Shown: piece after piece, positions 17,989 to 20,995 of the stretch
How the letters are laid out: every line of letters starts with the position of its first letter
How positions within the stretch are numbered: position 1 is the stretch's first letter
Source: Candidatus Woesearchaeota archaeon
Lineage (GTDB): Archaea; Nanobdellota; Nanobdellia; SCGC-AAA011-G17; PNOQ01
DNA: 33,231 nt
Reading direction: 5' to 3'
Assembly: GCA_964587005.1 (NCBI GenBank)
Contig: CAZPJW010000004.1
Location: 1 to 33,231, forward strand
Notes under the pieces: model-generated
What the model saw: the letters and a program-made list of their open reading frames with translations, nothing else
What the model was told of the DNA's origin: nothing
Database searches by the model: none
Made by a program: the position numbers and the translations under genes

Positions 17989-18747
17989 ATGAAAAAAAGA
18001 CTTGATATTTTAATAATAATTGTTTTGGTTTTATTTATCTCTGGTTGTGAAGTAGAATTACAAAAAAGTCCAGGAGAGTCAAATATAAACAATAACCCCT
18101 CTTTTTCTTTGCAAAATGCAGATAAAAATATTAAATTTAGCACTTCCAAGAATTTTTTACTTGAAACGAAAAAAGAAATAAAAACTGATGAGAGCAAGGA
18201 AGCCTTGTTATCTGGAATAGAAATTGAAAAAGAATCTATTGAGTTAGATTTGCCAAAAGAAGCTGTATATGGAGTTAGTGTTTCTGGGGGGTATGTTTTA
18301 TTTGGAAATAATGCGTTTGCTAGGGTTGTTTTGGTTGATTCTGATGATGTTGAATGGTTAATTTTTGGAACAGATCTCTTGTTCTTAGAAGGTTCAGATG
18401 TTTTTGATAATGTTTGTGATGAAACTTGCGTTTTTGATAAACCCATTATAATTAAAGAAATTAGAGTTGAAGGAACTGACTCTAATTTATTTCTGAATCA
18501 AATTAATTATAAAACTTCAAAAAGCTCTGAAAAGGCTAATGTTTTGAAAGAAAGGCAATATGATATTAAACTACAAAGATTACAAAATGAAATAAACTCT
18601 AAATCTTTATCTTGGACGGCAGGCGAAACTTCTGTTTCTAAAAAATATTACAGGGATTTGAAGAAATTATTTATTGGAAATGAGTTGGCTAATTTAAACG
18701 GATTTCAGTATTATAAGGGAGGGGTTTTTAAACTTGAAGATGATTAA
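17989..18747 (+). CDS. predicted lipoprotein with C-terminal C1A-protease propeptide-like segment (transposon cargo)
   Basis: Signal with lipobox-like ISG|C20; CDETC motif; C-terminal LQNEINSKSLSWTAGETSVS...LNGFQYYKGGVF resembles the segment preceding the mature domain in prokaryotic papain-like proteases (recalled). Confidence 0.65.
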   Translation: MKKRLDILIIIVLVLFISGCEVELQKSPGESNINNNPSFSLQNADKNIKFSTSKNFLLETKKEIKTDESKEALLSGIEIEKESIELDLPKEAVYGVSVSGGYVLFGNNAFARVVLVDSDDVEWLIFGTDLLFLEGSDVFDNVCDETCVFDKPIIIKEIRVEGTDSNLFLNQINYKTSKSSEKANVLKERQYDIKLQRLQNEINSKSLSWTAGETSVSKKYYRDLKKLFIGNELANLNGFQYYKGGVFKLEDD

Positions 18748-20995
18748 AAAATTATTATTAATCTTCTTATTTTTGATCCCTCTGGTTAGTGCAGAATATA
18801 TTGCCCCATATCCGGATGAATTAGATTATCGTGATTTTCAAGGTCAGAATTGGATGACTTCTGTAAAAAATCAAGAAGAATGTGGTTCTTGTTGGGCATT
18901 TGCTACAAATGCAGTTTTAGAAAGTTACATTAATCTATATTACAACCAACTTGTAAATGAAGATCTTAGCGAACAAGAACTTGTTTCTGATTGTTGTACC
19001 GATTGTGGTAGTTGTTCTGGGGGTCTTCCTAGCAATGCCCTATATTATATAGAAACTAACGGAGTTGTAACTGAATCTTGTTTTCCTTATGAAGCTCAAA
19101 ATTCGGCCTGTAACCTATGCCCTAATCACGATGATGTAACTTGGATATTTAATTCTGAAGAAAGAATATTTCAAGAACAACAATATATCAAAACATTTTT
19201 AGTTACAAATGGACCATTGCCCATGATTATAGACACTTGGAACCATGCAGTCGCACTTTCTGGGTATGAAAAAAACGATTCTGAAGATATTTGGATATTC
19301 AAGAATTCATGGGGTGAAGATTGGGGAGAAGATGGATATGGATATATTAGTGAACCAATAAATTTTCCACACAATATTTATTTTAGGGATTATGTCAGCG
19401 AAATTGTAAATTCTCCTAATCCAAATAATATTAATTGTTTAGATGGGGATGGAGATGATTATTGTTATTGGGGAATAACTGAGTCAATGCCGGGTTCTTG
19501 CCCCGGGATTTGCCTTTCATACAAAGATGAAGATGATTCCAATCCAAATATATACAAAGAAATGGATTTGTGGATTAGTGATTATGATGTACCAGAAAAA
19601 ACAAAAATAGATGAGATGAAGCATTATAGAATTTATGTTAATTATAAAGGGAATAATGAAAATCAAGTTATAAATAATGTTGAAGTTAATCTATACGTTG
19701 ATGGATCCCTACTCCAAGGAGAAGTTATTCCAAGTTTAAATGATGGTGAAACTTACCTTGTTGATTTTATATTAGACCCAAATGGATTTTATGAACCTTA
19801 TTTTAATAATAAATTTAGGTGGGAAATAGTTCCAAAGACTGGAGAAATAAATACTGAAAATAATTACTTGGAAAATGATGTTTGGGTTTATAATTATGAT
19901 AATGGATTTATCATAAGTGAATCTGGATATGTTTTTGATTGTTATTCAAACAATAATCCAGAGGGGCACCAAATTGAAGCTATTGTGGGTCCGAAGGGAG
20001 GGGAAGGAATCTCTTCTAGTTATACTAATTCCATAGAAATAAAAAATTGTTTAATGGGTGGCTGGTATAAGGACATTTATCTAGATCACGTTGAAAATAG
20101 TTTAGTGCAGAATAATCGACTTGGAGATGGATCTGGTTTAGGGATTTGGCTTTATCATTCCAATTATAATAATCTAACTCAAAATAGCCCAATACAGGAT
20201 AGCAATGGCCAAGGCATATTTTTAGAATATTCTAATCACAACGAAATTTCAGACAACATAATCCAATATACAGATTATGACTGTGTTGGATTGGATAATT
20301 CAGATAATAATCATATCCTCCACAATCTTATAAAAAATTGTTATTATGATGGTTTGTATCTCTTTAATTCTAGCGCTAATTTAATAGAGGGTAATGCAGT
20401 CCATGAGAATCGCCGAAAAGGAATTGCTTTAACATTTGGTGAAGAAAATACACTGTTTGATAATAATGGTTACAATAATCTTAACTTTTTTATTTTGTTA
20501 TACGGCTCAGAAAATAACCATATACTTAACAATTGGAATCAAGGTATGTATGGAGGGTTAGCTATATACTCTTCAAATGATTATGGTTATACATTTCCTT
20601 CAAGATATAATGAAATATCTGACAATATAATGTGTCAATTTAGAGATTATGAAGAAGGCTATTATCTTGACTTTTCTTGCCAAGAAGCAGATACTTTTGG
20701 GAACTATGGAGACCATAATAAATTTGGATACTATCTACCACCCTATGACCCTTATGCAGTGTGGGAATGTGAGGATGGATGGCCAGAACACGAAATTAAT
20801 TATTATGCTTGTAATCAATGTAGTGATGGAACTCTTGAAGAAGAATGTTCTGAGAATATGCCAAAGTATTGTTTAAATAGAAACTTAATAAATAATTGCC
20901 AAGAATGTGGCTGTCCAGTTGGATATTCTTGTAAATCAGATGGGTCTTGTCAAAGAAAACAAGGAACTAAATACAGACCAATGCAAGCAGTATAA
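18734..20995 (+). CDS. secreted papain-like cysteine protease (C1A) with CARDB-like domain, NosD/parallel beta-helix repeats and C-terminal Cys-rich module (transposon cargo)
   Basis: Signal peptide [24 protein letters not shown] (Cys 18890-18892), NHAV (His 19244-19246), KNSWG (Asn 19304-19306); EQELVSDC; N-rich GI.L..S..N.I..N repeats; SD GGAGG at 18718-18722. Confidence 0.92.
   Translation: [753 protein letters not shown]

Follow-up and report, generated by a model that had tools for sequence, protein, structure and literature searches.

A secreted papain-like protease without a pro-region

Protease pro-regions are textbook intramolecular chaperones and built-in inhibitors. The window analysed here, a 33,231-nucleotide stretch of an archaeal contig, encodes a papain-like protease that seems to have none, next to an upstream gene for a putative lipoprotein. 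The question is whether the missing pro-region is encoded by this neighbor and works from there in trans.

The protease gene, ORF2, ends at position 20995 and starts either at a TTG (18734) or at an ATG (18740), of which the ATG is most likely as judged from related loci (see below). ORF2 (18740-20995, + strand; 751 amino acids, or 753 from the TTG) is a predicted secreted multidomain C1A protease. Its own signal peptide, as read from the sequence, spans 18740-18793 (+), and about 32 residues lie between the predicted cleavage site and the catalytic cysteine. As 24 residues precede the catalytic cysteine in mature papain, ORF2 contains no pro-region, which bears out the original prediction that the signal peptide is followed almost directly by the mature domain.

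The C1A catalytic domain (18812-19408, +) possesses the complete catalytic set Gln45 (18872-18874), Cys51 (18890-18892), His169 (19244-19246) and Asn189 (19304-19306), numbered from the ATG at 18740, in the motifs Q..CGSCW, H and NSWG. PF00112 matches ORF2 with E = 4.9e-37 and 128.6 bits, against a gathering cut-off of 20.7, and PF03051 matches the C-terminal part of the catalytic domain. The Pfam content of ORF2 is Peptidase_C1, a weak CARDB-like stretch and NosD/Beta_helix, the last of which marks a NosD-like, right-handed parallel beta-helix region at 19949-20626 (+; PF05048, E = 3.8e-22; PF13229, E = 8e-17; TIGR03804 repeats). A cysteine-rich C-terminal module, PKYCL..C.ECGC..C..DGSC, is located at 20813-20956 (+) and is common to ORF2 and the neighboring ORF at 22361-23803 (BLASTP E = 4e-6 and 1e-5).

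ORF1 is a predicted lipoprotein with a propeptide-like tail

ORF1, listed at 17989-18747 (+) among the ORFs of the window, encodes 252 amino acids. By homology it is a predicted membrane-tethered pro-domain protein that corresponds to the split-off N-terminal region of a C1A zymogen. Standalone homologs of ORF1 (n = 12) are 200-264 aa long. The N-terminus, MKKRLDILIIIVLVLFISGC, contains a signal peptide and the lipobox ISGC (MKKRLDILIIIVLVLFISG|C; 17989-18048, +), with Cys20 as the predicted lipid-anchor site. The residues F-I-S-G-C20 agree with the lipobox pattern [LVI][ASTVI][GAS]C, and G19 and C20 are conserved at 90% or more in the ORF1-family alignment A1, which holds ORF1 and 11 close homologs. 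A lipobox-type motif occurs in 12 of the 14 other proteins of the split clade described below, while the remaining two lack the cysteine but have a hydrophobic anchor at the N-terminus. Predictions point to many lipoproteins in DPANN archaea, where the lipidation enzyme AliA is reported to be present (PMC12462473).

Three further parts follow the lipobox. The variable, low-complexity tether or linker (aa 21-78; 18049-18222, +) is the least conserved part of ORF1, with 36% identity to its counterpart at locus L004 and lower model confidence, and most profile matches leave it out and begin at about position 88. The second part is a beta-sandwich module of what we call the long-form pro-domain (aa 79-176; 18223-18516, +) with invariant CDETC..F, R112, D117 and E122-W123, whose strands at 80-175 are predicted by AF2 with pLDDT 95-98. 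The third is a propeptide-like core (18535-18729, +) composed of a long helix (aa 183-204) and the tail SLSWTAGETSVSKKYYRDLKKLFIGNELANLNGFQYYKGGVF (aa 205-247); the C-terminus of ORF1 reads ...SLSWTAGETSVSKKYYRDLKKLFIGNELANLNGFQYYKGGVFKLEDD. This tail is near-invariant in A1 and is the most conserved part of the protein. The AF2 model of ORF1 alone has a pLDDT of 90 and a pTM of 0.83. An antisense ORF of 158 aa (17970-18446) was disregarded, being an unsupported reading frame within the conserved ORF1 on the opposite strand of AT-rich DNA.

Fused relatives of ORF1

Of the 854 representative proteins retrieved in a search with the A1 profile, 550 had E <= 1e-10, and the best match to a fused protease reached E = 2.9e-43. 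After 16 proteins assigned to the split clade were set aside, 145 listed matches were left for counting, and 133 of these are fused proteins that carry an ORF1-like domain 10-40 aa before the C1 domain in the same chain. The original prediction had proposed that the tail of the upstream ORF resembles segments that precede C1A domains, and had asked whether ORF1 homologs are N-terminal parts of full-length C1A proteases; both hold for the matches listed.

The relationship to these prokaryotic multidomain C1A proteases is one of true homology over about 160-170 aa (E to 1e-43), with the invariant CEETC, W.AGETSVS and YYKGG.F in common with ORF1. The beta-sandwich is conserved in the fused homologs too. 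Each column of the ORF1 tail can be aligned with L.W.AGETSVSKLSY.EKKKLF..LPNLQGFEYYKGG.F of the fused proteases, and the resemblance of the tail to the segments preceding C1A catalytic domains, judged by the E values of the profile matches, is far beyond chance. The difference lies at the junction. A 15-25-aa linker joins the domain to the protease in the fused proteins, whereas in ORF1 and ORF2 its place is taken by a stop codon and a start codon plus a signal peptide, and in the junction alignment the stop of ORF1 and the signal peptide of ORF2 fall exactly in this linker.

At about 170 aa, with beta-sandwich, helix and tail, the domain that was split off exceeds a classical propeptide in size. 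Short-form bacterial C1A pro-regions consist of the helix and tail alone, without the sandwich. The 854 representative clusters expose a large prokaryotic family of long-form C1A pro-domains, which in the searches run corresponded to neither a Pfam nor an NCBIfam family and matched no PDB entry in sequence or fold. In the fused prokaryotic proteins this N-terminal part is a putative inhibitory propeptide that would be cleaved off.

The split is conserved and under selection

The same gene pair is found for the ORF1 homologs P0003, P0004, P0006, P0007, P0010, P0011, P0013, P0016 and P0020, in differing neighborhoods. Every split pair examined has the two-gene arrangement, in independent assemblies and at ORF1 identities of 35-89%, and wherever an ORF1 homolog was examined, an ORF2-type architecture followed it downstream. 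All partner proteases with readable DNA begin with their own signal peptide, such as MIRKLLIILFLIAPFVSA, MKKISILIFLVLALLVPLIYA, MSKKYILLLSLLLLLQKASA, MKSLILFLILLLNLSFVSS and MKLKFVFILLLLLLLPTLIEA, with the catalytic domain directly after it. Purifying selection acts on both ORFs. The dN/dS of ORF1 against L004 is 0.31 for the whole gene and 0.036 for the tail, a ratio that places the tail under very strong purifying selection.

The candidate translational coupling junction is ATGATTAA (18740-18747, +), in which the ORF2 start codon overlaps the ORF1 stop codon. Across seven other loci the conserved protease start is an ATG giving MI[KR]K..., and its equivalent in the window is 18740; the overlap is therefore 8 nt and not the 14 bp first proposed. 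An 8-nt overlap is also seen in L001, L003, L004, L005 and L009, a 4-nt overlap in L012 (ATGA), L013 and L014, and a 1-nt gap in L006, L007 and L010, so the overlap is not of one fixed length; the frame relation of ORF2 to ORF1 is +1 or -1, depending on the lineage. The GGAGG assigned by the original prediction as the Shine-Dalgarno site of ORF2 is indeed present at 18718-18722 (+). Because it forms codons of the invariant YKGG motif and lies 17 nt from the ATG at 18740 (11 nt from the TTG at 18734), however, its role as a Shine-Dalgarno site is only possible. The equivalent AAAGGAGG occurs in L001, L004, L006 and L012 and is degraded in L010. Coupling via the stop/start overlap appears at least as likely as the use of this site.

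Broken fused genes occur sporadically in metagenomes, and the original prediction had asked for a check of the junction for an indel. P0045 at locus L011 is interrupted by an in-frame TGA in place of a conserved Trp, P0304 and P0177 are probably separated by an in-frame TGA at an expected Trp as well, P0299 and P0303 have out-of-frame tails at their ends, and P0043, P0113, P0139 and P0160 are cut by contig ends; none of these was accepted as an independent split. For the pair in the window, an artefact or pseudogene (an indel from sequencing or assembly, or one fused protein made by programmed frameshifting) is effectively refuted, as comparison of the loci revealed a split at the same place down to about 35-40% identity, with junctions that vary, signal peptides that a fused product would carry buried in mid-chain, and selection on both ORFs. 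Programmed frameshifting is ruled out since the frame offset is not constant across lineages, and no single slippery site is conserved because overlap and offset both vary. The split-versus-fused survey suggested along with the original prediction yielded a small conserved clade of split pairs inside the large fused family. All computational checks suggested with that prediction turned out in its favor, and none gave a refuting result. On these comparisons, the gene split is a conserved natural fission of a protease zymogen in a DPANN (Woesearchaeota-like) lineage.

Structure models and comparison with characterized propeptides

The proposed co-folding of the two chains was carried out on a rejoined single chain of ORF1 and ORF2, using AlphaFold with the natural fusions as alignment. 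The resulting model, which forces the proximity of ORF1 and ORF2 by construction, is confident, with a pLDDT of 82.7 and a pTM of 0.78, and its best PDB matches are zymogens. Procathepsins L, K and H make up the eight best, with alignments of 282-307 columns versus about 210-220 for the mature enzymes; the greater length of the zymogen alignments indicates that part of ORF1 superposes on procathepsin propeptides. The papain fold of the ORF2 part of this model was recognized by Foldseek with E = 1e-15 to 1e-17 against cathepsins K, L, S and H, with a target-normalised TM of about 0.7 against the mature cathepsins. ORF1 alone gave no significant fold match in a Foldseek search of the PDB (best E 6e-3, TM below 0.3), so there is no support for a known inhibitor fold, chagasin-like or other. 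In the same search the beta-sandwich had no counterpart in C1A zymogens and resembled, weakly, generic jelly-roll and carbohydrate-binding folds.

The links of ORF1 to characterized propeptides by sequence are weak. The A1 profile gave chance matches alone against PDB sequences (E above 0.4). The tail-only profile A4 found no procathepsin in the PDB, its sole match being tachylectin-2 (E = 0.1), which was rejected as a repeat-pattern coincidence. An hhalign comparison of the tail profile with the human procathepsin L pro-region, the query being checked as identical to 7w33/1cs8, aligned six columns (KGGVF/KGKVF) and was not significant, so the similarity of LNGFQYYKGGVF to MNGFQNRKPRKGKVF of procathepsin L serves as a lead at most. 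PF08127 (Propeptide_C1) was the only recurrent Pfam match and appeared in 10 of 58 tails, with a best E of 0.009 and scores of 12.7-15.4 bits, all below the cut-off of 32.7. PF08246 (Inhibitor_I29; ERFNIN/GNFD-type) matched neither ORF1, nor any A1 member, nor any of the 58 tails.

ORF1 has features of the cis C1A pro-regions, cathepsin B-type (PF08127) and I29 cathepsin L-type (PF08246). Its relatives lie directly N-terminal to the catalytic domain, and the predicted order of helix, W.AG/N-type turn, short helix and extended segment is the same. Unlike these pro-regions, ORF1 is separately encoded with its own signal peptide and lipobox, and the eukaryotic propeptides lack the approximately 100-aa beta-sandwich that precedes its propeptide-like core. 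Propeptide-like I29 inhibitors of C1A enzymes also exist as free-standing proteins; CTLA-2alpha, crammer and BCPI are separately encoded homologs of C1A pro-regions and target the mature enzyme in trans (PMC4089206). In contrast to ORF1, they are eukaryotic and soluble, lie outside operons, carry I29 sequence signatures and have target enzymes that keep their own propeptides. ORF1 may work like an I29 inhibitor, yet it is not to be classed as one.

Proposed working of the split zymogen

We consider it probable, with some reserve, that ORF1 and ORF2 form a naturally split zymogen that works in trans. As the homology shows, the ancestor was one secreted chain with a signal peptide, a long pro-domain (in the order beta-sandwich, helix and W.AGETSVS...YYKGG.F tail), a Ser/Thr/Pro-rich linker, a C1A domain and accessory domains. 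In one DPANN lineage a stop codon and a start codon overlapping it, together with a newly gained signal peptide, took the place of the linker. The two genes, presumably co-transcribed, would be expressed together from a single transcript via the stop/start overlap, and Sec would export both products unfolded. The lipidated Cys20 and the flexible tether of about 60 residues would keep ORF1 on the outer membrane face, where it would bind the emerging protease domain like a cis pro-domain. It would then act as a folding template, while its conserved C-terminal tail blocks the active-site cleft, and the protease, which has no anchor of its own, would remain at the cell surface in latent form for as long as ORF1 is neither displaced nor degraded. 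Binding of the protease in trans, like help with its folding, its inhibition and its tethering, is inferred. Precedents for such a mechanism are the I29 inhibitors above and the external chaperone of the Aeromonas protease ASP described below. What could speak against a pro-domain role is the beta-sandwich, which could serve otherwise, for example in surface or substrate binding.

ORF1 might instead be an inhibitor or self-protection (immunity) factor only. ORF2 would then fold alone, and tethered ORF1 would shield the producer's surface proteins, as in the Spi/SpeB and staphostatin/staphopain pairs. In Streptococcus pyogenes, the gene for the propeptide-like inhibitor Spi adjoins that for the cysteine protease SpeB, a precedent named in the original prediction. 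This possibility is unlikely in our view. The propeptide-like tail is indeed the most constrained part of ORF1, and membrane tethering would place the protein where self-protection is needed. Other pro-less secreted C1A proteases also seem to exist; P0213, with a signal peptide directly before FDWR, suggests that some C1A domains fold without a pro-region. On the other hand, gene order and the stop/start overlap suggest roughly equal production of both proteins, and since an unremoved 1:1 inhibitor would leave no active enzyme, a release step would still be required. The entire 170-aa pro-domain is retained, beta-sandwich included, and not the tail alone. Furthermore, Spi and the staphostatins are cytoplasmic, whereas ORF1 and ORF2 are both predicted to be exported. 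SpeB also differs from ORF2 in that it is a member of family C10 rather than C1A and has retained its propeptide, and Spi has no homology to ORF1. The effector/immunity-like reading of the pair in the original prediction, drawn by analogy, has no direct support.

A role as a steric foldase only, that is, a reusable membrane-anchored chaperone without lasting inhibition or tethering, seems quite unlikely. The model for it is Lif of Pseudomonas and Burkholderia, whose operon also encodes the secreted lipase LipA; Lif is anchored in the membrane and serves LipA as a dedicated steric chaperone, and a predicted membrane-anchored ORF1 in an operon with a secreted enzyme that lost its intramolecular chaperone would fit this pattern. 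Lif and LipA are, however, unrelated to ORF1 and ORF2 in fold and client, and Lif was not born by fission of its client's pro-region. The ORF1 tail is homologous to the segment just before the catalytic domain in fused zymogens, and in known C1A zymogens the segment in this place is inhibitory. A second precedent is the propeptide-deficient protease ASP of Aeromonas sobria, yet its adjacent ORF2 is an external chaperone and also a temporary inhibitor, with its C-terminal tail at the catalytic site (PMC5638518). The pair in the window is similar in that the protease has no pro-region of its own and the partner gene is adjacent (8-nt overlap). It differs in that ASP belongs to the S8 subtilase clan, not to the papain clan, so that only analogy is claimed, and in that the chaperone gene lies downstream, whereas ORF1 lies upstream. 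To our knowledge, the ASP chaperone is neither a recognizable homolog of a cis propeptide nor lipid-anchored.

That ORF1 has acquired a function apart from the protease, such as adhesion to a surface or binding of a substrate via the beta-sandwich, with a purely genetic link to ORF2, is very unlikely: the weak likeness of the sandwich to carbohydrate-binding folds and the long N-terminal extension of the ORF1 homolog P0020, which shows that added modules are tolerated, are outweighed by strict adjacency in every lineage examined, by the strongest constraint being on the tail and not on the sandwich, and by the finding that the ORF1 homologs examined are always beside or fused to a C1 protease, save for truncated or broken gene calls.

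In this lineage nature itself made the cut between pro-domain and enzyme and retained it through deep divergence; we know of no experiment supplying a pro-region in trans that was not artificial. With such a two-component system, the contributions of a C1A pro-domain to folding, to inhibition and to membrane tethering could be measured one by one. A more far-reaching proposal, which we hold to be doubtful, is that the pair is a switchable surface-tethered protease in the attachment or feeding machinery of an episymbiont. ORF1, now a reusable regulatory subunit, would use its flexible tether of about 60 residues to hold the folded but blocked enzyme at the DPANN envelope and would free or unmask it only on cue, for instance upon contact with the surface of the host archaeon, and the beta-helix and cysteine-rich domains would target the host envelope. 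ORF1-type genes in these archaeal MAGs carry the label "hypothetical protein", and the adjacent proteases would be mistaken for constitutively active enzymes.

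Pro-region and protease on two genes

ORF1 (17989-18747, + strand) encodes a protein of 252 aa whose N-terminus, MKKRLDILIIIVLVLFISGC, is a signal peptide with a lipobox at its end. Residues about 230-247 read LANLNGFQYYKGGVF, and the C-terminus is ...SLSWTAGETSVSKKYYRDLKKLFIGNELANLNGFQYYKGGVFKLEDD. A lipobox is also found in 12 of the 14 other members of the split clade, in which pro-domain and protease lie on two genes; the remaining two carry a hydrophobic N-terminal anchor. ORF1 is under purifying selection relative to its counterpart at locus L004 (dN/dS 0.31 overall and 0.036 for residues 181-252), and this selection is strongest on the tail.

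ORF2 (18740-20995, + strand) begins within the end of ORF1 in a different frame. A classical signal peptide at its N-terminus is directly followed by the sequence of the catalytic domain, in which the catalytic residues Gln45, Cys51, His169, and Asn189 are all intact. Pfam assigns Peptidase_C1 (E = 4.9e-37), NosD (E = 3.8e-22), and Beta_helix (E = 8e-17) to this protein, in addition to a weak CARDB-like stretch. The distance from the predicted signal-peptide cleavage site to the catalytic Cys is only ~32 residues, so the protease lacks a pro-region, just as originally predicted. All computational tests that we ran also support the further proposal that this region now sits on a lipoprotein of its own.

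A word-indexed protein search for ORF1 returned 12 close homologs of 200-264 aa, all of which are standalone proteins. The profile built from ORF1 and its close homologs (A1), searched against 1.84 billion representative proteins, gave 854 matches at E <= 1e-3 and 550 at E <= 1e-10. We scanned 161 of the sequences listed, in a local search, with this profile and with the ORF2 catalytic domain. A C1 peptidase domain was present in the same chain in 133 of them, starting 10-40 residues past the end of the ORF1-like domain, which bears out the view that homologs of ORF1 are the N-terminal parts of full-length C1A proteases. The ORF1-like match spans profile positions about 88-247, roughly 165 residues, and neither Pfam nor NCBIfam annotates anything in this N-terminal part of the fused proteins.

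Alignment across the junction showed that the segment L.W.AGETSVSKLSY.EKKKLF...LPNLQGFEYYKGG.F of the fused proteases corresponds to the ORF1 tail column for column. In the fused proteases the tail is followed by a low-complexity linker of 15-25 residues and then by LP.SFDWRN.HGENW.TPVKNQG.CGSCWAF. The window has KLEDD, a stop codon, and the ORF2 signal peptide at the position of the linker; ORF1 and ORF2 therefore represent a zymogen of the fused type that has been cut precisely between pro-region and enzyme. ORF1 is thus the homolog of the pre-catalytic region of fused zymogens, with the fission conserved at the linker and with separate export signals for the two products.

The fused proteins nearest to ORF1 (P0017, P0018, and P0019) have large insertions that interrupt the C1 domain, so that their local phmmer match to C1 falls into three pieces over about 330 aa. 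They lack NosD/beta-helix and end in other C-terminal modules (Mucin2_WxxW in P0017), and the linker of P0018 contains a Cys-rich insertion of about 70 aa.

Conservation of the split and other interrupted genes

A protein with C1 and NosD/beta-helix domains lies directly downstream of every ORF1 homolog with readable context (P0011, P0003, P0007, P0004, P0006, and P0010). The same pair is found in distant members whose ORF1 identity is about 35-40%, namely P0013 (locus L010), P0016 (L013), and P0020 (L014). Each readable downstream protease has its own signal peptide, directly followed by the ..PD. motif. At the junction, the two genes overlap by 8 nt (ATGATTAA/G) in the window, L001, and L004 and by 4 nt in L012 (ATGA), L013, and L014, whereas L006 and L010 have a gap of 1 nt. 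Since the junctions vary among lineages, the frame offset is +1 in some and -1 in others. This lineage-dependent offset rules out a conserved programmed frameshift; it likewise rules out a sequencing indel, against which the retention of the pair in distant lineages also speaks, and the split is real. Comparison of the junctions across loci places the conserved start of ORF2 at ATG 18740 and not at TTG 18734, which shortens the 14-bp overlap of the original prediction to 8 nt.

Several apparent splits in the databases are of another nature. In some metagenomic relatives (L011 1254-1259; P0177, P0178, P0184, P0191, and P0304), the gene of the fused protease is interrupted by an in-frame TGA at the very position of the conserved Trp in ..HG.NW|MTPVKNQ.., and several database proteins begin at the Met following that Trp. 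These cases suggest either genomes that read TGA as Trp but had their genes predicted under the standard code, or stop-codon errors, and they would lead a naive survey to overcount splits. We therefore rejected L011, with its in-frame TGA, as an independent split, as well as P0304/P0177, which probably has the same in-frame TGA. P0299 and P0303 were discarded because of out-of-frame tails at their ends, and several other candidates because their sequences stop at contig ends. In the cluster of the fused protease P0023 (90% identity), some contigs call the gene as 2-3 fragments, annotated as "hypothetical protein" and "C1A family cysteine protease". These calls are probably frameshift errors and illustrate the contrast between sporadic breaks and the conserved split clade.

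The GGAGG motif at 18718-18722, 17 nt before ATG 18740, is formed by codons of the invariant YKGG motif; the Shine-Dalgarno-like stretch encoded there is AAGGGAGGGG (18715-18724). It may serve as the Shine-Dalgarno site of ORF2. As the YYKGG protein motif is also common to fused homologs, a ribosome-binding-like site just upstream of the linker may predate the fission. It is plausible, judging from these protein motifs, that GGAGG/YKGG was a pre-adaptation that eased fission at this point.

Relation to known propeptides

The link of ORF1 to known propeptides is weak at the sequence level. The only Pfam match of ORF1 alone is PF08127, the cathepsin-B-type Propeptide_C1, at residues 200-227 (12.7 bits vs a threshold of 32.7). 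Among 58 tails, PF08127 is the sole recurrent match, found in 10 with a best E of 0.009 and always below threshold, and PF08246 (I29) matches none. A search of the tail profile against the PDB found no procathepsin, and its hhalign comparison with the verified pro-region of human procathepsin L was not significant.

We modelled ORF1 alone with 60 sequences (pLDDT 90, pTM 0.83). In this model, the signal helix leads into a tether of low conservation, a beta-sandwich (residues 80-175), and a long helix (183-204), after which come the W-T-A-G strand, a short helix (221-225), and a final strand. Foldseek found nothing significant for it in the PDB (best E = 6e-3, TM below 0.3), so the long-form pro-domain, composed of sandwich, helix, and W.AGETSVS...YYKGG.F tail, has no structural counterpart there. 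A joined chain was also modelled, in which mature ORF1 was joined to the ORF2 catalytic domain with the ORF2 signal peptide omitted, so that a linker of natural length was recreated, using an alignment of 60 natural fusions (pLDDT 82.7, pTM 0.78); confidence was low only at the tether and the artificial junction. The best PDB matches of this model are zymogens, namely procathepsins L, K, H, and S (E about 1e-17, 282-307 columns), whereas mature cathepsins align over about 210-220 columns. It follows from the longer alignment that part of ORF1, as modelled, superposes on I29-type propeptides.

In many bacterial C1A proteases (e.g., P0195, P0197, and P0205), the pro-region is a short form without the sandwich, made up of signal peptide, helix, and W.AGETS.S tail only. 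This suggests a core propeptide consisting of helix and tail, with the beta-sandwich as an add-on. ORF1 is best classed as a homolog of the prokaryotic long-form C1A pro-domain and should not be placed in I29 or PF08127. The long-form family (P0017-P0161; window 18223-18729) comprises 854 representative clusters; neither Pfam nor NCBIfam has a model for it, and it has no fold match in the PDB.

Proposed mechanism and precedents

ORF1 and ORF2 would be made together and both exported by Sec. The lipoprotein would then bind the protease domain as a pro-domain does in cis, helping it to fold and blocking its cleft. Because the ORF2 sequence has no obvious hydrophobic C-terminal anchor, binding to ORF1 would hold the protease at the cell surface, where it would stay latent until ORF1 is displaced or degraded. 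The effector/immunity framing of the original prediction is speculative.

Mechanistically, the nearest precedent is the Aeromonas ASP/ORF2 system, in which a propeptide-deficient protease is served by the external chaperone of an adjacent gene. The Aeromonas ORF2 is both external chaperone and temporary inhibitor, with its C-terminal tail at the ASP catalytic site (PMC5638518). Other analogues are the free-standing I29 propeptide-like inhibitors (PMC4089206) and the Lif foldases. According to predictions, lipoproteins are widespread in DPANN archaea (PMC12462473). A recent survey of prokaryotic C1A peptidases did not analyse multidomain forms, and the passages searched do not mention prokaryotic pro-regions (PMC10380794). 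A literature search of limited coverage yielded no description of a split C1A zymogen.

Genomic neighbourhood

The neighbouring genes in the window are those expected on an archaeal chromosome (FttA/aCPSF1, proteasome beta subunit, SMC, RNase HII, archaeal CCA-adding enzyme, and diphthamide synthase). A Candidatus Woesearchaeota MAG is the sole relative among the species-representative genomes, which places the organism in the DPANN archaea. The genes around the pair vary by lineage, including a proteasome beta subunit, a LAGLIDADG endonuclease, HTH_24, a helicase, and a MazE-like protein; with a different neighbourhood in every lineage, the gene pair may be moved around.

An IS-type DDE_Tnp_1 transposase gene lies immediately downstream of ORF2 (21294-22334, + strand), and in L004 (732-1748, - strand) and L005 (423-1439, - strand) a DDE_Tnp_1 gene of 338 aa sits directly upstream of the ORF1 homolog. 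LAGLIDADG homing-endonuclease genes adjoin the pair in related Woesearchaeota-like contigs (L001 4270-5004, L009 3222-3956, and L006 7287-7943); those in L001 and L009 share 4 nt with the 5' end of the ORF1 homolog. The Cys-rich module at the C-terminus of ORF2, PKYCL..C.ECGC..C..DGSC (20813-20956, + strand), occurs twice (BLASTP E = 4e-6 and 1e-5) in a 480-aa ORF (22361-23803, - strand), an acidic, Cys-rich protein with a C-terminal membrane anchor and no Pfam family. Just upstream of the transposase, a 55-aa ORF (21086-21253, + strand) that begins MSKKIVVTLPDETYKLMK has no Pfam match and looks, from its sequence, like a ribbon-helix-helix (CopG/antitoxin-like) protein.
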